17,235 bases of DNA from a bacterium (GTDB taxonomy: Bacteria > Hinthialibacterota > Hinthialibacteria > Hinthialibacterales > Hinthialibacteraceae): positions 1 through 17,235 of the forward strand of contig JBHGBC010000130.1 in NCBI GenBank assembly GCA_041946805.1, written 5' to 3'. Under the pieces are notes generated by a model. It saw only the letters and a list, made by a program, of their open reading frames with translations, was not told the origin of the DNA and made no database searches. Made by a program: the position numbers and the translations under genes. Below, in pieces: positions 56 through 16,818 of the stretch (positions within the stretch are counted from its first letter, which is position 1; each line of letters starts with the position of its first letter).

Positions 56-84
56 TTGACAAATAGTTATCATTGATGTATTGT
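56..84 (+). promoter_or_regulatory. sigma70-type promoter of the cluster
   Basis: Perfect -35 TTGACA (56-61), 17-bp spacer, -10 TATTGT (79-84, 4/6 match to TATAAT), AT-rich upstream DNA, 38 bp before the first ATG. Confidence 0.7.
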
Positions 85-122
85 TACCTCTGCAATAGAT
101 TCACAACAAGATAAACGAAAGG

Positions 123-329
123 ATGAAAACCTTGGCCGAACAGATAGGTGATACCGAAACTAGCCGTCAAATTATTGTGCGGATAAAAATCCCCACTCAC
201 CGGGCGTTGCGGATTAGGGTGGCGGAAGAGGATACTTCGATCCAAAAATGGGTGGAGGAATTGATCGAGCGGGAACTGGGAATCGCGGCGGAGAAAGAAG
301 GCTCTATTGCCACGAAAAAAGCCAGATAA
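123..329 (+). CDS. Small ribbon-helix-helix-like DNA-binding protein (68 aa), probable autoregulator
   Basis: Alternating beta-strand QIIVRIK followed by two amphipathic helices ([27 protein letters not shown]), as in Arc/CopG-type RHH proteins. First gene after the promoter; stop is 2 bp before the next ATG. Confidence 0.65.
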
Positions 330-331
330 AA

Positions 332-1069
332 ATGAGTGCCATTCAAAATGCGAGTCCCAAACCCCAATGGTTGATTGAGAATCCCAAGGACGGGACCCTG
401 CTGGTCCTGATCCCGGACGGAGATTTTTTGGCGGGTGATAAGAAATTTCCGGTTAATTTGCCGGCGTATTACCTGGCGGTGCATCCGGTGACCAACACGC
501 AGTACAAGCGGTTTGTGGAGGCGACGGGGCATCATCCTCCAAACCGGCCGGGTTATGTAACGCCGGTATGGAAGGGGAAAGATTTTCCGATAGAGAAGGC
601 GGATCATCCGGTGGTGTGCGTGAGTTGGAAGGATGCCAAGGCCTATTGCCAATGGGCGGGCATGCGGTTGCCGACGGAGTTGGAGTGGGAGAAGGGGGCG
701 CGGGGGGCGGACGGCCGGGAGTATCCGTGGGGGGACGGATGGGATCCGCATAAATGTAGAAATTCAGTGGGGCAACAAGCAAATGGGACTTGTGACATAT
801 GGTCGTATGCGGAGGGGAGCAGTCCCTGGGGATTGTATCAGATGGCGGGGAACGTGTGGGAGTGGTGTGAAGACTGGTATGACAGCCAGGCTTATGCAAG
901 ATATAAACGAGGGGATTTGTCCTTGCCGAAAAGTGGCCAGCATCGTGTGGTTCGCGGTGGCTCGTGGTACCGCTACTTCGTCAATTACTTCGGGTGCGCC
1001 TTCCGCAACAACTACGACCCGTCGGTTCGGGACCTCAACTTCGGTTTCCGTTGTGCCAGGACTTGTTAG
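332..1069 (+). CDS. FGE-sulfatase/CLec-fold protein 1 (245 aa), DGR target
   Basis: Motifs [53 protein letters not shown] and GFRCAR. Start set at ATG 332 rather than 248, which would overlap the RHH gene. Confidence 0.92.
944..1069 (+). repeat. DGR variable region VR1, with conserved 3' IMH-like end at 1043-1069
   Basis: 126-bp gap-free alignment with VR2-VR5; 15 of 16 variable codons end in C; ends GGTTTCCGTTGTGCCAGGACTTGTTAG. Confidence 0.85.
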
Positions 1070-1120
1070 TTTTTATCCTTTTACGCTTTTACCCTTTAGC
1101 GAGCGCAGCGAGCTCGCGCG
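1070..1120 (+). repeat. Post-VR cis element: three 8-bp T-rich units plus GC hairpin
   Basis: TTTTATCC TTTTACGC TTTTACCC (1071-1094), then GCGAGC-GCAGCGA-GCTCGC (1099-1117). Related copies follow VR2, VR4 and VR5. Confidence 0.8.
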
Positions 1121-1149
1121 CAATTTTAGAAAATGAGAGATGGTTTATC

Positions 1150-2232
1150 ATGAAACGTTACAGCCAGTTATGCGAATCGATTAGTTCGTTCGAGAATTTG
1201 TGGGCGGCCGCGTACCGGGCCAGACGCGGGAAGCGCTATCGTCCGGACGTTCTCGCGTTTCATCACGATCTGGAAAATCAGTTATTCACGCTGCGTGAAA
1301 AATTGCTCCATGAAACGTATCAACCCGGTCCGTATCGGACTTTTCCTATCCGGGATCCAAAACCCCGCTTGATCAGCGTGGCCAGTTATCGCGACCGTGT
1401 GGTTCACCACGCGATCTGCCAGATCATCGAACCGCTTTATGACCGGAGTTTCATTGACGATAGTTATGCCAACCGGCTGGGCCGGGGAACCCATAAAGCC
1501 GTGGCTCGGTGCACTTATTTTGCGCGGCGATACCCGTATGTTTTGAAATGCGATATCCAAAAATATTTCCCCTCCATCGATCACGAAATCCTCAAAATCC
1601 TCATCGCTCAAAAAATCAAATGCCCCCGAACCCTGCGATTGGCCGGCAAGATTATTGACAACTCCAATCCCCAAGAAGAAGTTGTGCAATATCTCCCGGG
1701 AGATGATTTGTTCACTTCGTTGGAACGCCGTAAAGGTATCCCGATCGGGAACCTGACCAGTCAATTCTTCGGGAATGTGTATTTGAATGGAATGGATCAC
1801 TATATAAAAGAGGCTTTGCATTGCGGTGCTTCTCTGCGTTTCGCGGACGACTTTCTCGTGTTCAAGGATGAGAAAGGGCGGTTGCACGCCATTCTTCGAT
1901 CCCTGCAAAATTATCTCAATCGCTTGCGCCTGAAATTGCATCCGCACAAATGCCAAGTGTCACCCACAGTCCATGGTGTGGAATTTTTGGGGTGGATCAT
2001 TTATCCCGATCACCGGAGGGTGCGGCGTTCCACCGGGCTTCGATTTCAGCGCCAATTACGCAAGCTTCAGCAGGCTTATGTCAAAGGATGGATTGATTTG
2101 AATTCCGTGAAAGCCTCGATAATGAGTTGGATTGGTCATTTGCAACACGGAGATACCCACGGTTTGCGGCGGAAATTATTAGAGTCAGCGGTTTTTTCGA
2201 GGAGTGCAGAATGTTGCACGACGGGAGAATGA
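1150..2232 (+). CDS. DGR-type reverse transcriptase (360 aa)
   Basis: MKRY start, YRDRVVHHA, LKCDIQKYFPSIDH, GIPIGNLTSQ (DGR-type SQ motif), RFADDF, GVEFLGW and SWIGHLQHGDT. Compact, with no group II intron maturase or endonuclease extension. Confidence 0.92.
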   Translation: MKRYSQLCESISSFENLWAAAYRARRGKRYRPDVLAFHHDLENQLFTLREKLLHETYQPGPYRTFPIRDPKPRLISVASYRDRVVHHAICQIIEPLYDRSFIDDSYANRLGRGTHKAVARCTYFARRYPYVLKCDIQKYFPSIDHEILKILIAQKIKCPRTLRLAGKIIDNSNPQEEVVQYLPGDDLFTSLERRKGIPIGNLTSQFFGNVYLNGMDHYIKEALHCGASLRFADDFLVFKDEKGRLHAILRSLQNYLNRLRLKLHPHKCQVSPTVHGVEFLGWIIYPDHRRVRRSTGLRFQRQLRKLQQAYVKGWIDLNSVKASIMSWIGHLQHGDTHGLRRKLLESAVFSRSAECCTTGE

Positions 2233-3485
2233 TGATGGACAAGATAAGTCTGGAAAAATATGGGAAGCGTTTGAGGAGCCGAATTCCGGTATGGGGCTTA
2301 ATGCGGCGCCGGGGCGCCATCCAAAAACTGGCGGAAGATTCCTCGAGCGAGGCGGTCCCCCTGTTGGTATCGGCATTGGATTCAACCGACCATACCGTGA
2401 GGGAAACGGCGGACCGGGCATTGCATTCACTGGAGGACCCGAAAGCGATTGACGCGCTGTGCGAAGAGGCCATTCGGAATCCTTCGGGCCGGGCGGCCGC
2501 GATTTGCCGGGAAACCAACAAGCGGCCGTCTGATCACGAACGGGCTTGCTTGTTCCTGTTTGTCACCCGGCAACTCGACGCCTATTTTGATGAGGATTTC
2601 GAGTTCCAAAACCTGCGGTTGCAATATGACCGGGAGGATGCGGTGGTCCAAGGGCATCTCATGGACATCGTGCGTTCCGGGGACCGTCGATGTTTGGGAT
2701 TTTTTGGCGCCCGCAAGTCTCTCTCCGAATGCACGGAGAGTGAAATCCAATTGGCCATCGATTCGGCGTTGCGGCATCAGGACTGGCCGCGTTTGTTTCG
2801 CGCGTTTTTGGAACTGCCTGTAAAGTACGGATATCCGTTGTTGGATCCATTCCGTGATTCCGGCTGGGAGCCGTCCGATCCGGAGTTGAAAAGCGTTTAC
2901 AAACATGTGCTGGAAGACAGCCGGGATCAATCATTCCCTGTAGAAAGAAAAATCAAGACCATCAGTCCCGTTTTCGAACGCTGGCTGATCCAAGGAAGGG
3001 AAAACACTTTTAAGGATCTTTCCGAAACGGAACTGCTCAACCGCTTGGAATCTTGCACACCACCGGAAGGGGTGTCGATTGTGGCCGCCCTGGCCGCCAA
3101 ATGCAAACCGGGAAGTGAAACCGCCCAGAAAATCCAACGGAATCCACACTGGTTGATTCGCCTGGCGGGCTACGCAACCGGTTTGTGTTTCGATCTGACC
3201 GTTGATGAAGTAAAAGACAGCAACTATTGGGTGAGGGAACTGGTAACCAGTAGCGCCGTACTCGAGTTGTGGCCAGGAAAAGCCACGCCGACCGATTTGG
3301 ATGCGTTAAAGGCCGCCCCACGGGAAGCCTGGTTGGGTAAATTCGGCGCGGTCCGGAAGGTTCTGCAAACCTTGATTGGATATCGCATCACCACAGGCGT
3401 GTATGAGGAAATGGCATTTGAAGCCGGTGAATTTGCCGGTGAATTCGACACCGCGATGGATTTTAACACGGACGATTCCAAATAA
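2229..3485 (+). CDS. N-terminal HEAT-repeat helical protein (about 418 aa) with acidic tail
   Basis: PBS-lyase/HEAT-like segment AIQKLAE..EAVPLLVSALDSTDHTVRETADRALHSL. ATGA overlap with the RT stop and GGGAG upstream; the start could also be 2232 or 2235. Confidence 0.7.
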   Translation: MMMDKISLEKYGKRLRSRIPVWGLMRRRGAIQKLAEDSSSEAVPLLVSALDSTDHTVRETADRALHSLEDPKAIDALCEEAIRNPSGRAAAICRETNKRPSDHERACLFLFVTRQLDAYFDEDFEFQNLRLQYDREDAVVQGHLMDIVRSGDRRCLGFFGARKSLSECTESEIQLAIDSALRHQDWPRLFRAFLELPVKYGYPLLDPFRDSGWEPSDPELKSVYKHVLEDSRDQSFPVERKIKTISPVFERWLIQGRENTFKDLSETELLNRLESCTPPEGVSIVAALAAKCKPGSETAQKIQRNPHWLIRLAGYATGLCFDLTVDEVKDSNYWVRELVTSSAVLELWPGKATPTDLDALKAAPREAWLGKFGAVRKVLQTLIGYRITTGVYEEMAFEAGEFAGEFDTAMDFNTDDSK

Positions 3486-3507
3486 CGTAGCGAAAAGAGA
3501 ACATGCC

Positions 3508-4044
3508 ATGAGTGTTAAAAGATACTTTGCACGGCTGGTTTCCGCATTGTTGGGGAGAGAGACATTGATAGCCGGCGTTGAGGGGAGCAATGCGTCAGTG
3601 CAGGCGCGAATTGCCCTCTTGGAGATGGACATCAAGGAAAGGGACAAGCGCATCACGGAGATGCAGAAAGAATACGCGAATCTCCAGGTTGCCCAGGAAA
3701 AAGCCACAGCCGGGGCCGGCCGGGAAGAGATCAAAAATTTATGCAAACGCCTGGTGGGAACATTATCCAATCTGGATGTGCTGGTCTCTCTCGAAAAGTC
3801 GGGCCGGGAAGTAGCCGTCAAGGATTTGATCGAACTGATCCTGAGCCTGGAAAAAGAACTCGGCCGGATTGGACTGGAAAAGATCGGAACCGTGGGGATG
3901 GAAACCGGTTTTGATCCAGTTTTTTATCAGCGAATGAGTGGGGGCAGTGTTCGGGCAGGGATCCCGGTGGTTGTGCGCATTCCAGGGTACCGGATGGGCG
4001 AGAAAATATTGCTCAAAGCGATGGTCACCGCCCAGGAGGCCTAG
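3508..4044 (+). CDS. GrpE-like nucleotide exchange factor (178 aa)
   Basis: Long N-terminal coiled coil, then a GrpE-like head GLEKIG..G..FDP..YQ..VVVRIPGYRMGEKILLKAMV; directly upstream of the Hsp70. Confidence 0.75.
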   Translation: MSVKRYFARLVSALLGRETLIAGVEGSNASVQARIALLEMDIKERDKRITEMQKEYANLQVAQEKATAGAGREEIKNLCKRLVGTLSNLDVLVSLEKSGREVAVKDLIELILSLEKELGRIGLEKIGTVGMETGFDPVFYQRMSGGSVRAGIPVVVRIPGYRMGEKILLKAMVTAQEA

Positions 4045-4045
4045 G

Positions 4046-5677
4046 ATGAGCCAGGTATCGGTCGACTTTGGGACAAGCAATACCGTTTTAGCCCGGTTTA
4101 ACGAGACCACGCAACGGGTAGAAACCCTGGATATCCCCGGTATCGCCAGTGAAATGCGCTATCGCTTGACGCAAGATGGACCGGAACAATTCGTTCATGT
4201 TATTCCTTCCCTCATTCATTATTCCGAAACGGAAACCTTGATCGGCAACCAGGTTTTATCGCGTGGCTTGGCCGAACATCCGGACACGTTCCGATGGATG
4301 AAACGCGCGATCGCCCGTCGCATTACCAAATGCAAGAAGACGGCTCAAGGCCATATCGATCCCCTGCAGGCCGGGGAAGATTTTTTGAAGGCGTTGTTGA
4401 ATTATGCCAGCGACCGGATTTCCTTCACCAACGATGATTTTACCTTCACCGCGCCGGTGGAGGCGTTCGAGGATTTTCAAGATTGGCTTTGGAAAGTCAT
4501 CGAAGGATTGGGAATCCGGAGGTTTCGTATGTTGGATGAGCCCACATCGTGCGTGTTTGGCTATCATGGAGCCGCCCGGAAAGACGAACGATTCGTGATG
4601 TTCGATTTCGGCGGAGGCACGTTGGACGTGTCGACGATCCGGATTGAAATGAGTTCAACCGACACGAAAAAGGCCGTTCAGCTAGGCCAGGCCGGCCAGG
4701 ATCTGGGGGGAATGGATATCGATCAATGGCTGGCGGAAGATTTTAGCACTCGGCATAAGTTGGACGACCGGGAAAAGCGGGATTTGGAAGCCATCATTCT
4801 CCGGCAGGCCGAGGCGGTCAAGATTGCATTATCGGACCCGCTGGAGGCAGAAGCCGGATTTCAGATTATTAGCCAGGCTGGATCCGCGCCGAGATTGCTT
4901 CGTACTACGTTTACACGCAGTTGTGCGCAGTGCGAACGCGGTCAGGTGGGCAATCACTCTGCCCCGGGAGAAGCGTGCATGGGCTGTATCTTGCTTCAAA
5001 AGGATTTCGTGAAACAGGTGCGGGATACGATTGACCGGGCGCTGGAGAACGCGGCGGTGAAAGTGGGGATGCGAAAAAATGAGATCACAAAAGTACTGGT
5101 CACCGGGGGAACCAGTTTAGTCCTTTGCGTTCAAGACATCTTGAAGAATTGCTTTGATTGCCACATTGAATATGACCATCCATTCGATACGGTGGTGCGC
5201 GGGGCGTGCCGGGGAATCGTGGAACCGGTTCTTCAGCATGACTACGCCATTGAAAGTTATAACAGCTCCCGGAAAGAGTATGAATTCAAGCCCTTATTCA
5301 AGATCGGCACTGAATTCCCCACGCGAAAAGATGCCGTCAGGTTTTGGGCCAAGGGCAGTTACGATGGCATGACCCGGATCGGATTGAAAATCTATGAAGT
5401 GTCCCGCATGAAGCGGAGGGATCTCGCGGTGGCCATCGTGGGGGAGGATGGCCGATTGCGGGGAGACAGCCGGGTAACCAGCGAGTATGAGTACATTTGT
5501 TTGAATGAAGACAATCCCACGTTTATCCTGGCCGATCCCCCAGTGAATCTGGCGCGGGATCAACAACGTTTCCTCTGTTCGTTCGGAATCGACGGCAATC
5601 GCCGGTTGCTGGTAACCGTGCTCGATACCCTACGCAGAAAACCCTTGCTCAAAGAGCATCCCGTTGTCCGACTGTAA
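4046..5677 (+). CDS. Atypical Hsp70-family ATPase (543 aa), not a housekeeping DnaK
   Basis: VDFGTSNT, LDEPTS, FDFGGGTLDVS, LGGMDID, AEAVKIALS and VLVTGGTS; AGGAGG RBS at 4034-4039. Short divergent C-terminal beta region with no helical lid. Confidence 0.9.
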   Translation: MSQVSVDFGTSNTVLARFNETTQRVETLDIPGIASEMRYRLTQDGPEQFVHVIPSLIHYSETETLIGNQVLSRGLAEHPDTFRWMKRAIARRITKCKKTAQGHIDPLQAGEDFLKALLNYASDRISFTNDDFTFTAPVEAFEDFQDWLWKVIEGLGIRRFRMLDEPTSCVFGYHGAARKDERFVMFDFGGGTLDVSTIRIEMSSTDTKKAVQLGQAGQDLGGMDIDQWLAEDFSTRHKLDDREKRDLEAIILRQAEAVKIALSDPLEAEAGFQIISQAGSAPRLLRTTFTRSCAQCERGQVGNHSAPGEACMGCILLQKDFVKQVRDTIDRALENAAVKVGMRKNEITKVLVTGGTSLVLCVQDILKNCFDCHIEYDHPFDTVVRGACRGIVEPVLQHDYAIESYNSSRKEYEFKPLFKIGTEFPTRKDAVRFWAKGSYDGMTRIGLKIYEVSRMKRRDLAVAIVGEDGRLRGDSRVTSEYEYICLNEDNPTFILADPPVNLARDQQRFLCSFGIDGNRRLLVTVLDTLRRKPLLKEHPVVRL

Positions 5678-5706: not shown

Positions 5707-7242
5707 ATGAATCTCAAGGAAGAATTACTCGCGTTGTTCGGGGCGAATGTTCCCATGATGAACCTGATCACTTACGAAGAAGACCGGGTGATTCGCTGCA
5801 TCCAGGAATTGCCGGGCAATTTCGGGATTTATACGTGGGATATGGCGGATGGCTTCAAGTGCATCCGGGAAGGAAAGGAACCCTTTCCTAAAAAGGATGT
5901 AACGACGGATACCCTCCTGCCGCATATCGCCGAAAAAGCCCCGACGGGGTACGTTTTTGTTTTCAAGGATTTCCATCATTCCTGGACGCAAAAAAAGGGG
6001 TACATCACCCGCAAATTACGCAACATGGCCCCCGAGTTGCGCAAACGCAACCAATTTCTGGTTTTTCTTACGCCCGCGGCCGAGCTTCCGCTGGAACTCA
6101 AAGACGATGTAGTCGTTTTGCATGTGCCCTTGCCGGACAGCCATGAAATGGAGCAATTGTATGATGATGTGACGCGCAATTTGGATCGAGGAAGATTACC
6201 GCATCGTGACTTGCGGGGAAAACTAGTTTCCTCGGCGCTGGGATTGACCACGAATCAAGCCCGATTGGCCTTTTCGCGGGTTTGGGCGCGGTATCAGAAG
6301 TTTGATGAACGCGGTATTGATTTGGTCACCTGGGCCAAGCGGGAGGTGATCCGCGAGAGTGGCGCGTTGGAATTCTGGCCGGCGGAGGAGGGGGAAACGA
6401 GTGTCGGGGGATTGGATTTGATGAAAGCGTGGCTTAAGAAGCGTGGCATCGCTTTCGATGAGGAAGCGAGAAAAGCAGGGCTGCCCTTTCCCAGCGGAGT
6501 GGCGTTGATCGGCATTCCCGGCACCGGCAAAAGTTTATCGGCCAAGATGCTGTCCGGCTTGTGGAAGATGCCGTTGTTACGGCTGGATATAGGAGCGGTA
6601 TTCGAATCGTTGTTAGGCGAATCCGAAAAACACATGCGCCGGGCCATCATGCTGGCGGAGACGGTCAGTCCTTGTATTTTGTGGATCGATGAGATGGAAA
6701 AAGCCTTTGCGGGATCGGGCACAGGTGCTTTGAACAGTGGAGCCGCCACGCGGGTCTTCGGCGGTTTTTTGACCTGGATGCAGGAACATAAAAGCCCGGT
6801 GTTCGTATTTGCCACGGCCAACGATATCAACGCCTTGCCGCCGGAACTCATGAACCGGTTCGAGCGGACCTTTTTCCTCGATCTGCCCAACGCCCTGGAA
6901 CGGGAAGAGATCTTTATCATCCACTTGAAACGGGCCGGAGAAATCAATCCCAAACACCGTTTCCGGATGAACGAATTGGTCGAACGCAGCCGCAGCCTGG
7001 TAGGCCGGGAGATTGAACGCGCCGTGCGGGAAGCCCAATTCACCGCTTTCGCCGATGGCAACCGCGAGATCACGCAAACGGATTTGGAGGATTCTCTTCG
7101 GGAGATTGTCCCCATTAGTCAATCTCACGCGGAAATCATTGAAGGTTTGCGAAAGTGGAAGACCGAGGGCCGCGCATTCCCCGCTTCCAGCGAGGAAAAG
7201 CGATCGGATCTGACGCGCGGACGACAAATCGAGATTGAATAA
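5707..7242 (+). CDS. Ycf46-like AAA+ ATPase 1 (511 aa)
   Basis: N-terminal TYEEDR and degenerate first domain (FVFKDFH); Walker A GIPGTGKS; Walker B LWIDEMEK; FATAND. Confidence 0.88.
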   Translation: MNLKEELLALFGANVPMMNLITYEEDRVIRCIQELPGNFGIYTWDMADGFKCIREGKEPFPKKDVTTDTLLPHIAEKAPTGYVFVFKDFHHSWTQKKGYITRKLRNMAPELRKRNQFLVFLTPAAELPLELKDDVVVLHVPLPDSHEMEQLYDDVTRNLDRGRLPHRDLRGKLVSSALGLTTNQARLAFSRVWARYQKFDERGIDLVTWAKREVIRESGALEFWPAEEGETSVGGLDLMKAWLKKRGIAFDEEARKAGLPFPSGVALIGIPGTGKSLSAKMLSGLWKMPLLRLDIGAVFESLLGESEKHMRRAIMLAETVSPCILWIDEMEKAFAGSGTGALNSGAATRVFGGFLTWMQEHKSPVFVFATANDINALPPELMNRFERTFFLDLPNALEREEIFIIHLKRAGEINPKHRFRMNELVERSRSLVGREIERAVREAQFTAFADGNREITQTDLEDSLREIVPISQSHAEIIEGLRKWKTEGRAFPASSEEKRSDLTRGRQIEIE

Positions 7243-7261: not shown

Positions 7262-7654
7262 ATGTCTCATTTTGTGCGCATTAAAACTCAAATTCGCGAG
7301 CGGGAGATTCTGGTTCAATCCTTGCGGGATTTGTATTACCGGTTTCAGGAAGGACAGAACCTGGTCATCCGCGGATATCAGCAAAATCGTGAACAGGCTG
7401 AAATCCTAGTAAATACCGGTTCACAATATGACATTGGCTTTCGCCGGACGGCCCAGGAATACGAAATCGTGGCCGATTGGTGGGGTGTGCAAGGCAATAC
7501 AGCCATTCGGCAAGAGGAATTTGTCCAACAAGTGAACCGTCAGTATTCCTACAATCTGATTCACAACCAAGCGCGAGAACAAAACCTGATAGTCGAGGAA
7601 GAAAAGACGTTGGAAAACGGGGATGTTGTTTTGATCTTGTCGGAGCGCGGATAG
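7262..7654 (+). CDS. DUF1257/Ycf35-like protein (130 aa)
   Basis: Characteristic MSHF.RIKTQI start, [13 protein letters not shown] and [22 protein letters not shown] upstream; usual neighbour of Ycf46-like ATPases. Confidence 0.82.
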
Positions 7655-7658
7655 ATCA

Positions 7659-8372
7659 ATGTCTTATGACATTCTTATCGAGAATGAGAAAGACGGCACG
7701 CTGCTGGTTTTGATTTCGGAGGGGGATTTTTTGGCGGGTGCTGAAAAGTTCCCGGTCCATTTACCGGCGTATTACTTGGCGCTGCATCCGGTGACCAATG
7801 CGCAGTACAAGCGGTTTGTGGAGGATACCGGCCATCGGCCGCCGTATAAGGCGAGTTCGAGAAACCCATTGTGGAGGGGGAAAGATTTTTCGCAAGAGAA
7901 GGCGGAACATCCGGTGGTGTGCGTGAGTTGGGGGGACGCGCAGGACTATTGCCGATGGGCGAGATTGCGGTTACCGACAGAGTTGGAGTGGGAGAAGGGG
8001 GCGCGGGGAATAGAAGGCCAGGAGTATCCCTGGGGGGAGGGGATGGATTGGGGGAAATGCCGGAATGCTAAAAACAAGGGGAATGAGACGACTTGTAATG
8101 TATGGTCGTATACGTCCGGGTGCAGTTCGTGGGGGCAGTATCAGATGGCGGGGAACGTGTGGGAGTGGTGTGAGGATTGGTTTGATGGACAAGCCTTTGA
8201 AAAGTATAAGCAAGGGGATTTGTCCTTGCCGAAGAGGGGAAAGTATCGTGTGGTTCGCGGGGGCTCATGGAACTTCTACAAAGACAATTATTTTCATTGC
8301 ACGTACCGTATCGACTACGTCCCGTCGTCTCGAAACAACATATACGGTTTCCGTTGTGCCAGGACTTATTAG
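7659..8372 (+). CDS. FGE-sulfatase/CLec-fold protein 2 (237 aa), DGR target
   Basis: Close paralog of CLec1 with the same motifs; ends GFRCARTY. Confidence 0.92.
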
Positions 8373-8402
8373 TTTTTACATATTTATCCTTTAGCGAGCG
8401 AA
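8247..8402 (+). repeat. VR2 (8247-8372) plus truncated post-VR element
   Basis: 12 of 16 variable codons end in C; one mismatch in the IMH-like end; only two degenerate 8-bp units and only the left hairpin arm (TTTAGCGAGCGAA). Confidence 0.8.
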
Positions 8403-8718
8403 TCCAAAGTCCTAGTAGAGTTTATCGTTATCATAAATACCTTCGATCATTGCCGAGAGATGATGTAGAGGATGAGGAAAGCATTCATATAATTTATGCT
8501 TTGCAATTCACGAACAGCAGGGAATTGCAAATAAGGTTCCTTTCCGGCTTAGATCAAATAGAAAAATCACGAGACCGAAATCCCAAAGCGGCTGAAAGGT
8601 TTATAATGCTTGTGCGAATACCTCCCAGTTACTCAGTTGTAAAAGGTAGAGAGATAATGGCTCATATTTTGAGAAATGAGGGTATTGTGTTGTTCTTGTC
8701 GGAGCGGGGATAACATCG

Positions 8719-9480
8719 ATGCCATACGATCTGATCATCGAGAATCCTAAGGACGGAACCCTGCTGGTCCTGATTCCGGCGGGAGAGTTCTTGGCGGGTG
8801 CTGATAAGTTCACGGTCCATTTGCCGGCGTATTACCTGGCGCTGCATCCAGTGACCAATGCGCAGTATAAGAAGTTTGTGGAGGAGACGGGGTATAGCAC
8901 GTCTGATACGATGGTTTCTTCAGTTTGGCAAAATAAATATTTCAATAATAAAAAATTGGATCATCCCGTAGTGGAGATTAGTTGGTATGATGCTCAGGCT
9001 TATTGTATTTGGGCGGGTTTACGACTGCCGACGGAGTTAGAATGGGAGAAAGGAGCGAGAGGAAAGGATGACCGGAAATATCCCTGGGGACATGAATGGG
9101 ATCCTAGAAATTGTAGAAATTCTGTAGGTCAAAGAGTCTATGGAACATGTGGAGTATGGTTGTATTCAGAGAATTGTTGCCAATGGGGTTTGTACCAAAT
9201 AGCGGGTAATGTGTGTGAGTGGTGTGAAGATTGGTATGACACCCATGCATATGAGAAATATAAGCAAGGAATTTTGTCAATGCCAAAAAATGATAATGTG
9301 CTTCATAATGTGCTTAATAAAAAATCGTTGCTCCGTGTTGTTCGCGGGGGCTCGTGGAGAAACATCAGTAGCATCGGCTTTCAATGCGCTTACCGAGAAG
9401 GCGTCGATCCTTCGTCTCGAAAATACAACATCGGTTTTCGATGCGCCAGTCCTAATAAGGCTCACCCGTATTGCAGGTAA
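8719..9480 (+). CDS. FGE-sulfatase/CLec-fold protein 3 (253 aa), divergent, probably no longer diversified
   Basis: Same motifs but AT-richer codons, AGNVCEW, an insertion before RVVRGGSW and an extended C-terminus ([15 protein letters not shown]). Confidence 0.9.
9334..9459 (+). repeat. Degenerate VR3
   Basis: Aligns gap-free with the other VRs; 11 of 16 variable codons end in C; IMH-like end eroded (GGTTTTCGATGCGCCAGT); no downstream element. Confidence 0.7.
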
Positions 9481-9545
9481 AGCAATCATGCACATAATTT
9501 TCAAAATCAATCCTCTATAAAATCGTAAGGCTGGGGAGAACCACC

Positions 9546-9743
9546 GTGAAAAAAATCAAAATAACCCTCCACAAAGACGGCACGCAAAAAATCGAAGTGC
9601 TGGGCGGAACTGGGGAAACATGCATGGAATTCACCCGGGAACTCGAACAACGGCTGGGGAAACCCATTGGGGAACGCATCCTCAAACCCGAATATCACGA
9701 AACCATAACTGAAACCGAGAAGGATTTTGAGGTGGAATCGTGA
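9546..9743 (+). CDS. DUF2997-like small protein (65 aa)
   Basis: IKITLHKDGTQKIEVLGGTGETCMEFTRELEQRLG pattern; GGGGAG RBS and GTG start; overlaps the next AAA gene. Confidence 0.8.
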   Translation: MKKIKITLHKDGTQKIEVLGGTGETCMEFTRELEQRLGKPIGERILKPEYHETITETEKDFEVES

Positions 9744-11386
9744 TGGTTACCCCTTCGACGGTTCCCTCCCCGGCCGGACAATCCAAATTCCAGCAGGACC
9801 TGCAGATTTACATCCGCGCGGGGTACCCGATTTTGTATGTGGTTACGGCGGAAGAGGACCGGGCCATCGACTTGATAACCCATTCCTCGCAGGAAGGGGA
9901 GTTGGCCCGCCGGAAACCACTGATCTGGTCGATCTCCCGAGGATTGTGCACGATCGATCACAAAGCTGTCGATCGAAAAATCCTCGATCCTAAAATCATT
10001 TTGCCGTTTTTGCTGGAATTCCAGGAGCCGGGTTTGTTTATCCTGGAGGATTTCCACTTTTTCATGGATGAGCGCTCTCCCACCGCCCCGCTGATCATCC
10101 GGCAGCTGCGCGACCTGGTGGCGCCGTTCAAAGCCTCCCGGAAAACCGTGATTATCCTTTCCTCCATCCTGAAAATACCTCCGGAATTGGAGAAGGATAT
10201 CACCGTGCTCGATCTGGATCTCCCCACGGAAGCGGAACTCCTGGAGGTGCTGAATGAAACCGTCGACCAGGTCAAGGACAATCCCAAAGTAGAGATCAAC
10301 TTGGAAAGCGGCGGGAGCGAAATCATCGTGAAAGCGCTGAACGGATTGACACGGACGGAATCCGAAAACGCCTTGGCCAAGATCATCGTGACCAACAGCC
10401 GCATCGATCCCGAAGACGTGGAGTTGCTGCTCGCGGAAAAGGAACAGATCATCCGCAAGTCGGGAATGTTGGAGTTTTATTCCAGCCCCGAACGCTTTGG
10501 TTCCATCGGAGGATTGGATTTACTCAAACGCTGGTTGCGGCAACGAGGAAAAGCGTTTTCCGAATCCGCCCGGCTGTTTGGGCTGCCCAATCCTCGCGGA
10601 TTGCTGCTGGTGGGCGTTCCCGGATGCGGTAAAAGCCTCACCGCCAAAGCGGTAGCCGCCGAGTGGAAGATGCCGCTGCTCAAATTTGATTTAGGAAAAG
10701 TCTTCGCCGGACTGGTCGGTGAATCAGAAGAGAACATGCGCCGCGCGATTAAGATGGCGGAAGCCGTTTCCCCCTGCGTGCTGTGGATCGATGAAATTGA
10801 AAAAGGACTTTCGGGAGTCCGCGGCCACGGTGACAGTGGAGTCACTACGCGTGTTTTTGGGACGCTTCTGACCTGGATGGAAGAAAAAACCAAAGCGGTT
10901 TTTGTGGTCACCACCGCCAATGACATCGAAGGCCTGCCGCCCGAACTGCTGCGCAAAGGCCGTTTCGATGAAATTTTCTTTATCGATCTTCCCTCTCCCT
11001 TGGAGCGCGCCAACATCCTGGCCATTCATTTGACCAAGAATCACCGCGACTACCGTGATTTTGACCTTTCACCGCATGTAGCTGCCAGCGAAGGATTCTC
11101 CGGGGCGGAGTTAGAGCAAGTTGTTATCTCAGCGTTGTATGAAGCCTATGCGGAAGGAGAAAAAAGCCGGTTGGAGAATCGTCATCTCGAAAAAGCCATC
11201 CGGACTTCGGTTCCACTCTCCAAATCCATGGCTTCCAAAATCACCAAACTACGTTACGAAGCCCGTGACCAATGGCGGATGGCTTCCAGCGGGGAAGACG
11301 GTGGAAAGGACCAAGTAATCGGAGAGGTTTCCATGGGTGAAGTTCCACCCGTTCACACCAAACCCAAACGAGTGTTCGAACTGTGA
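9740..11386 (+). CDS. Ycf46-like AAA+ ATPase 2 (548 aa)
   Basis: [26 protein letters not shown], Walker A GVPGCGKS, Walker B LWIDEIEK and an intact [16 protein letters not shown]. Confidence 0.9.
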
Positions 11387-11393
11387 ACCGATC

Positions 11394-12212
11394 ATGAAAT
11401 TCATCAGTAAATCCAAATTGTCAGTGATTGGATCCAAAACAGATTATGAATCCACGACTCAGGTTCTGACGGTATGGGATTCAGTACTGAACCGTTTCCC
11501 CAATTTTCCCCCCATCATCGAGAACAAGAAAGACGGGACATTGCTTGTTTTGATTCGGGAAGGATTATTTTTGGCTGGTGTAAGTAGATTTCTGGTTCGA
11601 TTACCGGCGTATTACTTGGCACTGCATCCAGTGACCAACGCGCAGTACAAGAAGTTTGTGAAGGCAACGGGGCATCGTCCGCCAAACCAGCTGGATTATG
11701 GGACACCGGTCTGGAGCGGGAGAGATTTTCCGAACGAGAAGGCGGATCATCCGGTGGTGTGCGTGAGTTGGGAGGATGCTCAGGCATATTGTCAATGGGC
11801 GGGATTGCGGTTGCCGACGGAGTTGGAATGGGAGAAGGGGGCACAGGGGAAGGATGGCCGGGAGTATCCCTGGGGGCTGGTGATGGATTGGGAGAAATGC
11901 CGGAATGATAGAAACAGAGGAGATGAGACGACCTGTAGCGTATGGTCGTATGCGGAAGGCAGCAGTCCGTGGGGATTGTACCAGATGGCGGGGAACGTGG
12001 AGGAGTGGTGTGAGGACTGGTATGACAATCAGGCCTACGATAAATACAAGGAAGGGAATATGTCCTTGCCGAAGAGTGGCCAATCTCGTGTGGTTCGCGG
12101 GGGCTCGTGGAACGACCGCTGCGCCTACTTCATCCAGTGCGCTGGCCGTCACTACCGCGTCCCGTCGGAGCGGAGCGACGGCCGCGGTTTCCGTTGTGCC
12201 AGGACTTGTTAG
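11394..12212 (+). CDS. FGE-sulfatase/CLec-fold protein 4 (272 aa), DGR target
   Basis: Paralog with a leader of about 40 aa and AGNVEEW; ends GFRCARTC. Start set at the first ATG after the AAA2 stop. Confidence 0.9.
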
Positions 12213-12262
12213 ATTTTATTCTTTTACACACTTACCTTTTAGCGAGTGCAGCGAGCTCGCGC
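12087..12262 (+). repeat. VR4 (12087-12212) plus post-VR element
   Basis: 16 of 16 variable codons end in C; IMH-like 27-mer identical to VR1 and VR5; degenerate 8-bp units, then GCGAGT-GCAGCGA-GCTCGC (12242-12260). Confidence 0.85.
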
Positions 12263-12287
12263 GAAAATCTTGTGAAGGATAGTCATC

Positions 12288-14639
12288 ATGACCAGCGGCG
12301 GCCCTTACAAAATCGGCCAGGAATTCGGATCTTATTGCCTGGAAAGATACCTGGGTTCCGGCGCGTTCAAGAGTGTGTATTGCGCGACAAACCGGGGGAT
12401 GGATATACTAGTAACGGCTGTCGCCCTTGGTTTTCCCCATCAACAGGACGCGTTGGGGCTGGAAGACCTTGAAAAAGAATTTGCTGTCAACAGCCGGTTA
12501 ATCCACCCCAACATCGTGCGGACCTACGGATTGGAAAAACACGAAGGGATTGCCTTTCTAGTCATGGAATATGTGGAAGGTCAAACCTTGCGTCAAATTA
12601 TGAAGGATCGCGGCCCTTTATCGCCGCCGGAAGCGATTCGATATGCCGGGCTGGTCTCGGAAGCCTTGGCCTACGCCCATGCCTCCCGTGTTTTGCACCG
12701 GGACGTAAAACCTGACAACATCTACATCACCCAGGAGAATATTCCCAAACTTTTCGATTTCGGCGTCGGCCGCCTGTTATCCCGTACCAGTCAAAAGGCC
12801 AGTACCCGTATCGGGACGGTGGAGTACATGGCCCCGGAAGCCCTGCAGGGCGCCACGGGAATCCAGTCGGACATCTGGTCGCTGGGTATCACGCTCTATG
12901 AAATGCTGACCGGAATCCTGCCGTTCGCGGGAGAAGTCGGGGAAGTGATCCACAAGATCATGACGGCCAAATTCGACGAAGCGCCGCTGCGCCAGAAACA
13001 TGTCGATAACCGGATCATCCGGGTCCTTCGGAAAGCATTGAGTAAGGACCCCAATACCCGTTATCCCAACGCCGGGGAGCTGAGCCGGGACCTGGAAACC
13101 GTGGCCCGCCGTACCCGCATGGCCGATGATGACGAGAGCCGCTTAGAGATTCTCATCCGCGCCAGTATCCCACTCATTGGCGTTTGCTCGTTTGAAGAAG
13201 AACGCGTGCTGACCGCCATCCGGAACATCGCGCAACGGCTGACCGAAGACCGAGGCCGGCCGCGGCGGATGTATATCTGGAGCACATCCCGCGGCTTGCG
13301 CGACGAGGAAAATAAGCTGATCGGCAAGGATTCCGCGGGGGATCCCACCCTGGCTTTGTTGCATCTGATCGATGATCCCGACGATGCCATTTTTGTTTTT
13401 CTCGACATTCACGATCACTTCACGCCGGTGACGACGCGCCTGATCCGGGACGCCGCCCGGGCGGTCCGTATGACTCACAAGTCGGTTCTCTTTTTGTCGC
13501 CATTCTATAAAGTGCCAGATGAACTCCAAAAGGAGGTCACATTATCCCTGTATCAGTTACCTGACCGGACCTGCCTCGAACCGTTGCTCGATCAATTGAT
13601 CGATGAGTTCAAGAACGCCAACTTGCCAGTTGAATTGTCGGATGAGGATCGAATGGCGGTCATCCGGGCGTCAATGGGATTGACTCTGAACGAAGCGGAA
13701 CGGGCGATCCGCGCCGCCGGACTGAGATTGCAGGGATTGAAATCGGGCATCGACCGGCTCGTAGCCGAAGAAAAAACACAAGTGATCCGCAAAACGGGCA
13801 TTTTGGAATACTATCATCAATCCGATTCGTTCAAGGACGTTGGAGGATTGAACGAATTGGTGAAATGGTTCCAATCCCGGCTGCCGGTTTTCGCCGGGAC
13901 AACACGGTATGCCGGCCTTCCGCAGCCCAAGGGCGTTCTGTTAGTTGGCGTCCCTGGATGCGGCAAAAGCCTGACTGCACGCGCCTTGGCGGGAGCCTGG
14001 CAAGTCCCGCTGTTGCGTTTGGATGTCGGACGCATTTTCGGTTCGTTGGTCGGTGCTTCCGAGGCCAATCTGCGCCGCGCCATCCAAACCGCGGAATCAG
14101 TCAGCCCGTGTATTTTGTGGATCGATGAAGTGGAGAAAGGTTTTTCGGGTGTGCGCGGGCAAGGAGACAGTGGTGTCTCCGCCCGTGTGTTCGGCACATT
14201 TTTGTCCTGGCTGCAGGATAAAAAAAGTCCGGTATTTGTGGTGGCCACCGCCAATGATCTCTCCGGCATCCCCCCGGAGTTTTTACGGCAGGGACGTTTT
14301 GACGATATTTTTTTCGTCGGCTTGCCCGGTAAAAAACAACGGGAGGATATATTCAAAATTCACTTGAACAAACGACACCGCGATCCGGATACGTTTAACC
14401 TCCCCGGCTTGGTCGAGGCGAGCGGGCAATTTTCCGGCGCGGAAATCGAACAGGCAGTCATCGCGGGTCTTTTCCATGCCTTCGACCATGACCGGGAACT
14501 GGAAAGCGAAGATATCCATCAGGCATTGAAAGAAACAGTTCCCCTCGCTCAATCCCGTCGAGAAGACATCCGCCTCTTGACCGCGTGGGCCAGTCAAAAC
14601 GCGAAATATGCCAATCTGGAAGGATCCACGCCATCATGA
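12288..14639 (+). CDS. Hanks-type Ser/Thr kinase (WNK-like lysine placement) fused to Ycf46-like AAA+ ATPase 3 (783 aa)
   Basis: Kinase: [50 protein letters not shown]+: [34 protein letters not shown]. Confidence 0.92.
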
Positions 14640-15421
14640 CCGATCACATAGATCGTAATACAACAATCCCGATTCTGACTCCAGGTGATTTCGCGCTTGA
14701 CAACATTTTGGGTTTTTCTCCAATCATTGAAAACGAAAAAGACGGAACGTTGCTGGTCCTGATCCCGGCGGGGGAGTTTTTAGCAGGGAAAGAAAAGTTC
14801 CCGGTCCATTTGCCGGCGTATTACCTGGCGCTGCATCCGGTGACCAACGCGCAGTACAAGCGGTTTGTGGATGAGACCGGCCATCGGCCGCCGGATCAGA
14901 CGAATGGGGGAACGCCGGTGTGGAAGGGAAAAGATTTTCCCCAACAGAAGGCGGATCATCCGGTGGGGTGCGTGAGTTGGGTGTATGCCCAGGCCTATTG
15001 CCAATGGGCGGGAATGCGATGGCCGACAGAGTTGGAGTGGGAGAAGGGGGCGCGGGGGACGGCCGGCCGGGAATATCCCTGGGGGGAGGGGATGGATTGG
15101 GAGAAATGCTGGAATAAAGAAAATAAGGGGAATGAGACGACCTGTGATGTATGGTCGTATGCGGCCGGATGCAGTCCGTGGGGGCTGTATCAGATGGCGG
15201 GGAATGTGTGGGAGTGGTGTGAGGACAGGTATGACGACCAGGCATATGAAAGATATAAACGAGGGGATATATCCTTGCCGAAAAGCGGAACGTCTCGTGT
15301 GGTTCGCGGGGGCTCGTGGTACGACAATAACGTCAACTACTTCCAATGCGCCGACCGCAGCCCCTACGACCCGTGGTCGCGGCACCTCTCCTGCGGTTTC
15401 CGTTGTGCCAGGACTTGTTAG
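14636..15421 (+). CDS. FGE-sulfatase/CLec-fold protein 5 (261 aa), DGR target
   Basis: ATGA overlap with the kinase-AAA stop; same motifs; ends GFRCARTC. Confidence 0.9.
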
Positions 15422-15484
15422 TTTTTATCCTTTTACGCTTTTACCCTTAAAACGAGCGAAGCGAGCTTGCTGCAAATTTTGCAG
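15296..15484 (+). repeat. VR5 (15296-15421) plus post-VR element
   Basis: 15 of 16 variable codons end in C; 15394-15448 is identical to 1042-1096 (55 bp); then CGAGCGAAGCGAGCTTGC and the inverted repeat CTGCAAA-T-TTTGCAG (15470-15484). Confidence 0.85.
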
Positions 15485-15497
15485 AAATGGTGTTTGC

Positions 15498-16070
15498 ATG
15501 AAAGTCCAAATGCACGGCATAGAGTTAGCCAGCCGATCAAATGGACCTGGATTACGTGCGGCAATCTGGTTTCAAGGTTGTACGCTGCATTGCTTCGGTT
15601 GTTTCAATCCTGAAACTCACGATCCCACGAGTGGATTTGTGATGGAAACCCAGGATCTTGCCCATATGATCCATTCTTCAAACCTTCCCCTCGAGGGAAT
15701 CTCGATATCCGGCGGGGAGCCGTTCCAGCAATCCGAAGCGCTATACGATTTTCTCACACAAGTGGACCGTTCAAAATTGAGCGTTTTGGTTTTTACCGGG
15801 TATACCTTGGATGAAGTGAAACGGATTCCATTGGGATTACAAATCCTGACAATGGCCGATGCACTAATCGCGGGACGCTATCAACCAAACCAACCGTCCA
15901 ATTTCGCTCTATTGGGTTCATCGAATCAAAAGATCCATCTGCTCACCAATCGATATCGCATTTCCGATTTCGCATCCATTCCGCACAGCGAAGTAATCCT
16001 TCACAAAGATGGAACAATCACGATAACCGGTGTTCACCCCTTGAAAGCGCATGGGGCTACCCATGAATGA
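15498..16070 (+). CDS. NrdG/activase-like radical SAM protein (190 aa)
   Basis: NGPGLRAAIWFQGCTLHCFGCFNPETH (CxxxCxxC), ISISGGEPFQQ, VFTGYT and GSSNQK. Confidence 0.88.
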   Translation: MKVQMHGIELASRSNGPGLRAAIWFQGCTLHCFGCFNPETHDPTSGFVMETQDLAHMIHSSNLPLEGISISGGEPFQQSEALYDFLTQVDRSKLSVLVFTGYTLDEVKRIPLGLQILTMADALIAGRYQPNQPSNFALLGSSNQKIHLLTNRYRISDFASIPHSEVILHKDGTITITGVHPLKAHGATHE

Positions 16071-16818
16071 GAATTACTCACTATATAACATCGTATGTGC
16101 AGGCCTGACCGATCGGGGTCGAATCCGCGCGGAAAATCAAGATGCCTTTTTCATGCTGCCTGAGAAAGGCTTTTTCTTAGTCGTGGATGGCCTCGGCGGT
16201 CATCAAGCGGGGCGCCACGCCGCGGAAATGATAACCAACATCTTACCAGAACAGATTTTACAATTATCTTTAACGGTATCAAATGGCACAAAAGCCATCG
16301 CAGCGGTGCTGCAAGAAGAAATCCGGCGTTTGAATCATATTCTCTGGCAAGCAAGTGAATCCTACGAAAATATTCGTGGCATGGGAGCCACGCTGGTCAT
16401 GGCATATTCGCTCCAAGAAAACGTATTCATTGCACATGTCGGAGACAGCCGGGCTTATTTATTACGCGCGAACCAATTGAATCCCTTAACCAAGGATCAT
16501 TCCATCATTCGACATCTCGTGGATAGTGGGGTCATCACTCCCGACAAGGCAGACGATCATCCGATGAAAAATCAAATCACGCAATGTATCGGAATGGAAA
16601 AGGATATCGCACCTGATATTACATCATTTATTACTCAAGCAGGAGATCGGATTTTGCTCTGCACAGACGGACTGTCAGAAATGCTGAAGGATACCGAAAT
16701 AGCGGAGATTTTGAATAGTCAGAAAGATTCCCAACTGGCTTGTCAAATACTTATTGAAATGGGTAACGACCGAGGCGGTGAAGATAACATGACCGTTGTC
16801 ATTGTGGATTGGATATAG
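16063..16818 (+). CDS. PP2C/PPM-family Ser/Thr phosphatase (Stp1/PrpC-like, about 251 aa)
   Basis: TDRGRIRAENQD, VVDGLGG, MGATL, AHVGDSRAY, LTKDHS, LLCTDGL and GGEDNMT; alternative start at 16051. Confidence 0.93.
   Translation: MNENYSLYNIVCAGLTDRGRIRAENQDAFFMLPEKGFFLVVDGLGGHQAGRHAAEMITNILPEQILQLSLTVSNGTKAIAAVLQEEIRRLNHILWQASESYENIRGMGATLVMAYSLQENVFIAHVGDSRAYLLRANQLNPLTKDHSIIRHLVDSGVITPDKADDHPMKNQITQCIGMEKDIAPDITSFITQAGDRILLCTDGLSEMLKDTEIAEILNSQKDSQLACQILIEMGNDRGGEDNMTVVIVDWI

Follow-up and report, generated by a model that had tools for sequence, protein, structure and literature searches.

A conserved cluster of Ycf46-type AAA+, Hsp70-like and C-type lectin genes associated with a diversity-generating retroelement: a candidate machine with exchangeable recognition parts

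Introduction

The DnaK-GrpE pair and the AAA+ disaggregase ClpB together form a bi-chaperone, and to our knowledge the function of the cyanobacterial ycf46, ycf35 and DUF2997 genes has remained unexplained. A DUF2997-ycf35-fed7 gene cluster is listed in PMC4284462 (this and the other papers cited here by PMC accession are drawn on for part of their text only). Proteins carrying C-type lectin (CLec) domains and serving as targets of diversity-generating retroelements (DGRs) have been discussed in several settings: kinase-CLec fusions have been proposed to tune regulatory pathways in cyanobacteria (PMC7517822), kinase, caspase, TIR and FHA domains have been assigned to conflict systems (Kaur et al. 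2020, PMC7159879; Dore et al. 2024, PMC10907252) and fusions of an AAA ATPase to a CLec domain are targets in bacteria belonging to the candidate phyla radiation (CPR; Paul et al. 2017, as cited in PMC10907252), whilst Hsp70-GrpE has been linked to GAP1-N2 GTPase systems (PMC7159879). Here we analyse a 17,235-bp stretch, hereafter the window, which is the whole of contig JBHGBC010000130.1 in a genome assigned to the Hinthialibacterota (GCA_041946805.1; 6.7 Mb in 315 contigs, 97% complete) and in which five CLec genes and a reverse transcriptase (RT) gene are interleaved with genes for three AAA+ ATPases, an Hsp70-like protein and their companions. DGR-written CLec sensors on NTPase machines are a known theme; what is new is the unexplained Ycf46-type machine behind them.

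The cluster looks like one undescribed machine with exchangeable recognition parts. That it is real and associated with a DGR is very probable, and on the most likely account the window holds one member of a conserved cluster that has spread horizontally, in which a protein-remodelling core has acquired a DGR and an array of free-standing cytoplasmic CLec proteins. The components of this core are a HEAT adaptor, GrpE with a lid-less Hsp70, DUF1257, DUF2997, between one and three Ycf46-type AAA+ ATPases and an orphan NrdG-like radical SAM enzyme. A first-pass annotation, made from the letters of the window alone, had not known this combination as described, and full-text searches have likewise found no paper on the gene set, though the supplementary tables of DGR surveys might list such loci. 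No paper was found that joins DGRs with DUF1257, DUF2997 or Ycf46, nor, apart from the accessible part of Kaur et al. (PMC7159879), one that joins them with Hsp70, AAA and radical SAM proteins together. The accessible text of PMC8144416, PMC11661182 and PMC7517822 gives no ATPase or chaperone context, and that of PMC10907252 contains no Hsp70, DUF or radical SAM term.

Recurrence of the cluster

The Hsp70-like protein of the window, used as a query, gave nine genome loci and an alignment of seven such proteins gave 182 metagenome stretches, from which 80 loci were kept; the window proteins were mapped on all 89 loci. A gene-neighbourhood search had been the check proposed in the first-pass annotation, and the interleaved cluster does recur, in Hydrogenedentota, Acidobacteria, WOR-3 and Kiritimatiellae-labelled metagenome-assembled genomes (MAGs) as well as in dozens of metagenome contigs, a recurrence across phyla which argues that the association is not a chance neighbourhood. 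The recurring order is HEAT-GrpE-Hsp70-(CLec)-AAA1-DUF1257-DUF2997-AAA2-(CLec)-kinase-AAA3-(CLec)-radical SAM, often headed by a ribbon-helix-helix (RHH)-like gene together with a CLec gene; homologues of the RHH-like protein (58-74% identity) head the cluster in L018, L037, L041, L046, L051, L053, L055 and L060. The cleanest full comparator is L041, with 14 genes and no RT, and there is a short form (L016, L035) in which Hsp70 is followed only by AAA1-DUF1257-CLec-radical SAM. The RT gene lies directly upstream of the HEAT gene in eight loci (L033, L035, L037, L051, L052, L057, L058 and L067), the kinase-AAA3 fusion is kept in another eight (L015, L017, L041, L045, L046, L053, L075 and L031) and the radical SAM gene is the end of the cluster in L015, L016, L035, L041 and L075.

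For the close loci (Hsp70-like protein 50% identical or more), one or more full CLec genes were present in 14 of 19 where the flank was 8 kb or longer and in 22 of 29 where it was 5 kb or longer, and for the distant loci (26-41% identity) in only 2 of 15 and 4 of 18 respectively, these counts including near-duplicate loci (L015/L045, L051/L052, L069/L070, L078/L079 and L096-098) and therefore not being fully independent. The refuting condition named in the first-pass annotation, that homologous AAA/Hsp70 clusters generally lack CLec genes, thus describes the distant loci but not the close clade. As many as eight CLec copies occur in a close locus (L018, L053). Across the loci a CLec gene follows Hsp70 in 15 cases, AAA2 in 8 and the kinase-AAA gene in 5, and there are 14 CLec-CLec adjacencies.

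A relative of the core that has no CLec gene occurs in a cultured cyanobacterium, Pseudanabaena galeata CCNP1313, on plasmid pPg_01 (114318-132857; L112). This locus has two HEAT-WD40 genes, GrpE, an Hsp70-family gene, DUF1257 and a gene for an ATP-binding protein, and is surrounded by RelE/ParE and PIN toxin-antitoxin genes and a VWA-AAA pair. In the Acidobacteria MAG the cluster is split over two contigs (L016, L031), palindromic MITE-like repeats flank the halves (L016 1-407, L031 5700-6260) and AAA2 and the kinase-AAA protein each map as two tblastn pieces; the stretch L016:1-407 was considered as an RT end or a template repeat and was rejected, being a palindromic repeat. RT relatives in 40 related genomes stand in other contexts (e.g. 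G010) and were uninformative.

Gene organisation of the window

All sensible long open reading frames (ORFs) of the window are on the + strand, co-directional and tightly packed. They amount to 17 genes, where 16 had been counted before, with a 68-aa RHH-like gene at the head of the operon. The features are as follows, VR denoting the variable region of a CLec gene.

56..84, + strand: sigma-70-like promoter match TTGACA-17-TATTGT (predicted; best + strand match, 10/12, in a scan that overall was not above shuffles)
123..329, + strand: 68-aa RHH-like gene at the operon head (ORF; no Pfam match, RHH read by eye)
332..1069, + strand: CLec1, FGE-sulfatase fold, VR ~968-1042 (PF03781, E 5.7e-54; VR signature)
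1070..1149, + strand: conserved post-VR element with GC hairpin (common to CLec1, 4, 5 and partly CLec2 in the alignment)
1150..2232, + strand: DGR-type reverse transcriptase (RVT_1, E 5.3e-23; motifs IGNLTSQ and FADD)
2211..3485, + strand: HEAT/alpha-solenoid protein, likely an adaptor (HEAT_2, E 8.9e-9)
3508..4044, + strand: GrpE-like nucleotide exchange factor (PF01025, E 1.7e-8, above cut-off)
4046..5677, + strand: lid-less Hsp70 paralogue with CxxC...CxxC insert (HSP70, E 3.7e-20)
5707..7242, + strand: AAA1, Ycf46-type AAA+ with N-domain and one classic AAA module (AAA, E 2e-24; phrog_8638 over full length, E 2e-117)
7262..7654, + strand: DUF1257, Ycf35 family (PF06868, E 7.3e-22)
7659..8372, + strand: CLec2, VR ~8271-8345, 3' flank partly decayed (PF03781, E 8.2e-49)
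8606..8713, + strand: leftover C-terminus of a second DUF1257 (7610-7653 and 8669-8712 form direct repeat D7, 80% identity)
8719..9480, + strand: CLec3, divergent, probably a frozen copy (PF03781, E 3.9e-47; without the shared 3' flank)
9546..9743, + strand: DUF2997 (PF11211, E 2.6e-10)
9743..11386, + strand: AAA2, Ycf46-type AAA+ (AAA, E 3.1e-32; phrog_8638, E 5.8e-146)
11394..12212, + strand: CLec4, VR ~12111-12185, N-terminal leader (PF03781, E 7.1e-49)
12288..14639, + strand: Ser/Thr kinase fused to the third Ycf46-type AAA+ (Pkinase, E 4.2e-49; AAA, E 1.2e-29)
14636..15421, + strand: CLec5, VR ~15320-15394, N-terminal leader (PF03781, E 1.1e-49)
15498..16070, + strand: small NrdG-like radical SAM enzyme (Fer4_12, E 8e-29; CxxxCxxC at residues 28-35)
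16063..16818, + strand: PP2C phosphatase, 8-nt overlap with the radical SAM gene (Stp1_PP2C NF033484, 242.5 bits against a cut-off of 230)

The ORF map agrees with the coupled junctions that had been read at 329/332, 2229-2232, 4044/4046, 7654/7659, 9740/9743, 14636/14639 and 16063/16070, and family scans place on the + strand all the families that had been named: CLec five times, RVT_1, HEAT_2, GrpE, HSP70, AAA three times, DUF1257, DUF2997, Pkinase, Fer4_12/radical SAM (NrdG-like) and PP2C. The RT gene was correctly put inside the operon, where it lies between CLec1 and the HEAT gene, and the statement that the CLecs have neither signal peptide nor transmembrane segment can be extended, in that no transmembrane-like segment and no obvious signal peptide was seen in any window protein. 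The kinase, previously listed as a gene of its own, is instead fused to the third AAA protein. The putative single promoter has one consensus match in its favour (56-84), but the whole scan yielded 21 sites against 15.3 +/- 4.4 expected.

The largest intergenic gap (346 nt, 8372-8719) contains the second DUF1257 remnant, from which it follows that a DUF1257-CLec unit was once duplicated. From 8000 to 9500, a segment spanning the end of CLec2, the DUF1257 remnant and CLec3, the GC content is 0.44-0.46 as against ~0.53, and this low-GC segment is the trace of the duplicated unit, now decaying. The cluster appears to end at the PP2C gene. The host is not a cyanobacterium; PF00124 (photosystem reaction centre) was not found in its 97% complete genome. 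There are 27 FGE-sulfatase-domain matches in the assembly, 22 of them off this contig and many in long ORFs, and none of these 22 other places shares VR DNA with the window by blastn. The contig closes with an AT-rich stretch (16819-17235) in which a 76-aa ORF (16864-17094) has no family match.

Diversification of the CLec genes

Repeat pairs were sought in which the mismatches coincide with adenines of one member, and this gave canonical sets of a template repeat (TR) and VRs, with one template each, in L017, L035, L037 and L065. Each template corresponds to the 3' ends of two to three CLec genes at different places in the cluster, with 17-27 mismatches of which 86-95% are at a template A, and in the loci with TR/VR sets a bAvd gene (PF22296) is found immediately upstream of the template; Avd is present in seven related loci. 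That CLec genes of the cluster undergo rewriting in nature is most directly indicated by two metagenome contigs, L060 and L061, which are 99.1% identical over 6550 nt. Of their differences, 21 are in 74 nt of one CLec VR, all in NNC-type codons, with none in the 2161 nt before this VR and none in the 3946 nt after it, and the other 38 are confined to the 368 nt with which the overlap begins, upstream of the cluster.

Two further observations concern DGRs in these related genomes. In L061 an Avd gene and a 45%-identical RT are preceded, at 60-215, by a TR-like stretch rich in AAC, which was rejected as the cognate template of the L060/L061 VRs on account of non-adenine mismatches. The WOR-3 genome with the cluster (L017) has a second, separate DGR (L030, G043:C3, 277-11930), the targets of which are kinase-CLec fusions and which has its own RT (45% identical to the window RT) and its own TR (9093-9223).

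DGR RTs are marked by an IGxxxSQ motif. The window RT, which is the sole DGR-type RT found in the assembly, has this motif as IGNLTSQ and a second, FADD, both identical to those of the RTs of L035 and L037 with their proven TR/VR sets. The five CLec 3' ends of the window can be aligned and CLec1, 4 and 5 also share ~50 nt past the stop codon, including a GC hairpin with weak folds (z -1.85 for CLec1, -1.86 for CLec5). Differences between CLec1, 4 and 5 are distributed over the three codon positions as 36:38:12 in the VR, compared with 133:123:219 in the rest of the gene, a bias towards first and second positions of the kind that would be expected from the rewriting of template AAC codons. As the window has no TR of its own to compare, its VR1, 4 and 5 were set against the template repeats of four related loci: 26 of the 31 columns that are A in at least three of the four templates vary among the three VRs, compared with 17 of 93 other columns (Fisher p 7e-11). 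All five CLecs had been called hypervariable, a term that suits CLec1, 4 and 5 and partly CLec2, with its decayed 3' flank and weaker DGR signature, but not CLec3, which has neither the shared flank nor the NNC pattern and is the longest branch in the window clade; both CLec2 and CLec3 therefore look old or frozen. Contigs from the source sample break inside CLec paralogues, CLec1 included, and one reaches ~1.9 kb upstream of window position 1; usable VR heterogeneity was obtained neither from these contigs nor from one raw-read run of the study, and in a second run the organism was scarcely present, with 34 matching reads.

The CLec proteins as candidate recognition subunits

An FGE-sulfatase domain is present in all five CLecs (PF03781, E 3.9e-47 to 5.7e-54), with the VR at its C-terminal end, and profile A5 matches FGE structures (E 7.6e-45) and TvpA of T. 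denticola (2y3c, E 1.2e-19). The fold model of CLec5 (mean pLDDT 60.7, VR half <50) was of a quality too low to be used. Longer relatives of CLec5 (50-68% identity) are fused to kinases in many cases, these being the commonest fused relatives of the window CLec, and also to caspase-like peptidases, TIR, FHA, ankyrin, WD40 and HEAT_2 domains; an AAA domain fusion was seen once. Two fusions involve components of the cluster itself. In P0023 (771 aa) a CLec domain 58% identical to CLec5 follows a full-length Ycf46-type AAA+ protein, which shares 30% identity with AAA2 over 505 residues that take in the N-domain (E 2e-60), whilst P0068 (755 aa) is a HEAT protein of the cluster type followed by a CLec domain 53% identical, its HEAT part matching at E 8e-30 pairwise and E 2.3e-58 against the family profile.

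A tree was made of 68 CLec scaffolds, with VRs and N-terminal leaders excluded and four near-duplicate loci left out. The scaffolds group by locus (17 changes as opposed to 40.4 when shuffled, 0/300 as low) and not by the upstream gene (24 changes as opposed to 23.4), with the five window CLecs in a single clade (SH-aLRT 98). Position-specific orthologues, with a CLec for each ATPase, were accordingly rejected, the labels of upstream neighbours being no more clustered than shuffled ones. Scaffolds that are alike within a locus are as expected of interchangeable parts sharing one docking mode, so that the word interchangeable, which the first-pass annotation had chosen, sits well with them. What does vary by position is a short N-terminal leader (14636-14725 in CLec5 and 11394-11516 in CLec4 of the window). 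After the RHH gene it reads PQWL/EWL; a leader LTPxDFxLxxxLG, the type of window CLec5, is found after AAA2, kinase-AAA3 and DUF1257 and in tandem arrays; and after Hsp70 the leader is Trp-rich, which window CLec4 resembles. It is a speculation that these leaders might be docking peptides.

The core machine

The HEAT family has 226 representatives at E<=1e-30. Among 40 long members, picked from the 150 matches listed, 33 have a WD40 propeller after the first ~245 HEAT residues, one has a beta-helix and six have nothing else. These C-terminal exchanges, in which a CLec domain also takes part, point to a HEAT N-half that is a constant module and a C-half that is a swappable binding domain. The model of the window HEAT protein shows a single alpha-solenoid (pLDDT 86.8) and a disordered, acidic tail, and a fold search with it returned generic HEAT/ARM solenoids only, none at E<=0.001. 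Taken with the fusions and the homogenised scaffolds, the swappable C-half moderately supports the view that the CLecs are the machine's recognition subunits.

DnaK and the Hsp70-like protein can be aligned over the nucleotide-binding domain (NBD), the linker and the first strands of the beta part of the substrate-binding domain (SBD-beta), and since the latter protein stops after this point, at residue 543, it is without a lid; its scores against the NCBIfam DnaK and HscA models are all far below the cut-offs. A GrpE gene is present and the Pfam scan found no DnaJ in the window. The NBD has an insert (residues ~293-314) with four Cys residues (CxxC...CxxC) invariant in 7/7 sequences, and this insert may be a zinc ribbon.

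Walker A and B are intact in each of the three AAA+ proteins, which lack an aromatic residue at the pore-loop position (LLG or LVG) and score with CDC48, FtsH and PAN models. Their Ycf46 label comes from one source, a COG-level name ('SpoVK/Ycf46/Vps4 family') for AAA2 orthologues; Pfam scans show that DUF1257 and DUF2997 genes accompany them in the window. AAA2 matches the phage family phrog_8638 (function unknown) over its full length and phage families (PHROG) are also matched by DUF1257, DUF2997 and the radical SAM enzyme.

The kinase (12288-13150) has intact HRD and DFG motifs. In 8/8 homologues the VAIK position (VALGFP) is without a Lys and there is one within the glycine-rich loop (GSGAFKSVY), a placement that recalls the eukaryotic WNK ('with no lysine') arrangement. 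The radical SAM enzyme contains the motif CTLHCFGC and scores 95.4 bits (E 3.2e-27) against the NrdG model TIGR02491, for which the cut-off is 126.1; the glycyl-radical-type motif [RK][VIT]xG[YFW] was not found in any window protein.

Proposed mechanism and rival explanations

A mechanism that would unite these components begins with the RT, a TR and Avd, the latter two missing from the assembly, which would rewrite the C-terminal ligand-binding face of the CLecs; such rewriting is seen directly in the relatives, and in the window as a mutational signature only. The CLecs would then dock as interchangeable recognition subunits, probably on the HEAT adaptor and/or the N-domains of the AAA+ proteins, as the natural HEAT-CLec and AAA-CLec fusions and the swappable HEAT C-half suggest. 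A bound partner protein would be remodelled, unfolded or held by the AAA+ and Hsp70 proteins, with the kinase on the third AAA+ as a switch, roles that family knowledge makes plausible. These three steps taken together seem to us about evenly balanced between right and wrong. A final step would make the cluster a conflict system: since the recognition face is hypermutated, its ligand is probably fast-changing, for example the protein of an invader. The logic of hypermutation, and the company that the CLec clade keeps elsewhere (in the accessible parts of PMC7159879 and PMC10907252), would favour such a ligand and a role in immunity. This is the least supported step and an anti-invader system is a tentative suggestion, possible but short of probable; its most specific form, in which retroelement-rewritten, 'antibody-like' CLec adaptors on a HEAT/AAA+/Hsp70 complex would capture, unfold or sequester phage or plasmid proteins, is rather unlikely.

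A number of observations weigh against this reading. With regard to the retroelement, a blastn search (word size 7) with the five VRs against the window and the 315 contigs found only the five VRs themselves, the TR/VR scan of the window found no pair, PF05635 and PF22296 were not found in the genome and in a tblastn search of the assembly no match to four related Avd proteins fell below E 0.49. For the window, the description of the CLecs as DGR-diversified is therefore an inference from the DGR RT and the NNC codon signature in CLec1, 4 and 5, with neither TR nor Avd in 6.7 Mb to go with it. CLec3, and partly CLec2, look frozen, the DGR of the window may be dead and its own copy of the system may no longer be diversifying, or the assembly may be collapsed or incomplete. 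The order in L037 is rhh-CLec-Avd-TR-CLec-RT, and an order of this type could be collapsed in assembly between its two CLec genes; equally, the arrangement in the window need not be an artefact, since L051 and L052 share its order rhh-CLec-RT-HEAT and are likewise without a local Avd or TR. With regard to the machine, among loci with a flank of 8 kb or more the core is found without a CLec gene in 13 of the 15 distant and in 5 of the 19 close ones, so that the machine does not need CLec and, given its absence from most of the distant cores, CLec is an add-on and not a core part. The proposal that the CLecs are specificity adaptors thus gains from the fusions to the cluster's own HEAT and Ycf46-type AAA+ proteins and from the homogenised scaffolds, but loses by the distant cores, and each of the two fusions is known from a single protein cluster. 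Gating by a kinase-phosphatase pair, as first proposed, finds no backing in the relatives: PP2C is present in 0/89 loci, albeit that among the close loci only L016 and L035 have more than 1 kb past the radical SAM gene, and gating by phosphorylation would therefore fall to the kinase alone. With regard to immunity, PADLOC-DB 2.0 recognised no system in the window but only an IetA-like AAA, a PD-T4-6/mad6-like kinase, a PDC-M21C-like PP2C and a generic RT, with no or trivial matches for CLec, HEAT, GrpE, Hsp70, DUF1257, DUF2997 and radical SAM; the cluster is without a protease or nuclease effector; and the HEAT protein has no phage match and only one plasmid match.

The observations can also be accommodated in other ways. 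The CLecs might sense the cell's own or environmental ligands and so tune the kinase-AAA+ protein and the chaperone set, in which case the cluster would be a regulatory or signalling device, a reading favoured by the prevalence of kinases among the fused relatives of the window CLec, the RHH-like regulator gene at the head and the want of an obvious toxic effector; Vallota-Eastman et al. 2020 (PMC7517822) have argued, in the part drawn on here, for regulatory tuning by DGRs. Up to eight paralogous hypervariable sensors in one operon, and VR rewriting between samples as in L060 and L061, nevertheless suit a moving target better than a fixed physiological ligand, and other fused relatives carry caspase and TIR domains, so we regard a regulatory device as unlikely. 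It might alternatively be the chaperones that serve the CLecs, Hsp70, GrpE and AAA+ proteins buffering the folding of rewritten variants or clearing those that misfold: mutagenised proteins are plausible chaperone clients, and CLec genes do stand directly after Hsp70 and AAA+ genes. Against this, the core is common without any CLec, members of the HEAT family carry WD40 propellers instead, there are hundreds of other contexts in which CLec domains undergo diversification with no such chaperones, and the fusions to HEAT and AAA+ proteins point to a subunit and not a client, all of which makes it very unlikely.

The remaining possibility is that there is no functional coupling at all and that a DGR cassette with its expanding CLec targets has lodged in the gaps of a mobile Ycf46-type cluster. 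The CLec positions do vary by locus, with tandem arrays amongst them, homogenisation within a locus is as expected of local duplication or gene conversion and the core of the distant relatives is independent of CLec. Yet the CLec genes have been kept packed and on the same strand across several phyla, down to ~50% protein identity, the RT has been kept beside the HEAT gene in eight loci, and CLec has been fused to two different components of the same machine, which leaves mere lodging highly improbable. The preferred reading is that of a machine to which CLec recognition subunits are coupled. The link to CLec would then indicate the input end of the machine, which probably binds a specific, changeable protein or ligand, and the HEAT-CLec and AAA-CLec fusions indicate where the docking site may be sought. 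If this is true, bacteria would acquire a new type of hypervariable intracellular recognition with free-standing, multi-copy sensors; and if its most specific anti-invader form, with capture of phage or plasmid proteins, were true, Ycf46, Ycf35 and DUF2997 would acquire their first mechanistic role, as a substrate-programmable unfoldase. A long-standing problem of 'conserved ORFs of unknown function' in this way becomes a set of concrete questions about binding and unfolding.

Comparison with known systems

The vWA-MoxR (VMAP) ternary systems, as set out in the accessible part of Kaur et al. (PMC7159879), resemble the cluster in that a DGR rewrites an FGE/CLec-fold (FGS) domain of a multi-gene system of NTPases and chaperones, and the window CLec clade has fused partners (kinase, caspase, TIR) in common with them. 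There is, however, no MoxR-type AAA+ and no vWA match among the window proteins, the ATPases of which are of the classic clade and Ycf46-type; the CLecs of the window are free-standing and multi-copy, whereas there the domain is fused to the vWA component; and the partners here are DUF1257, DUF2997, HEAT, a lid-less Hsp70 with GrpE and a radical SAM enzyme. The GAP1-N2 GTPase of the Hsp70-GrpE systems in the same account was not seen in the window. The DGR-written sensors of multicellular bacteria (PMC10907252, in part) are similar in that one DGR serves multiple CLec targets in predicted conflict systems with a kinase or NTPase, but those targets are large fusions (STAND, kinase, CHAT, TIR and others), unlike the window CLecs. 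Both the CPR AAA-CLec fusions (Paul et al. 2017, as cited there) and the present cluster couple CLec to an AAA ATPase, here by way of separate genes in a cluster of 12-17 genes.

The likeness to the cyanobacterial and plastid ycf46-ycf35-DUF2997 set is that DUF1257 and DUF2997 stand beside a SpoVK/Ycf46/Vps4-type AAA+, and the differences are a host without a photosystem gene, three AAA+ paralogues and the addition of Hsp70/GrpE, HEAT, radical SAM, a DGR and CLec genes. As in DnaK-GrpE-ClpB, the window has genes for AAA+ ATPases in company with those for an Hsp70 and its exchange factor; in contrast to it, the Hsp70 is lid-less, there is no DnaJ, and the ATPases have one AAA module, a different N-domain and no aromatic residue in the pore loop.

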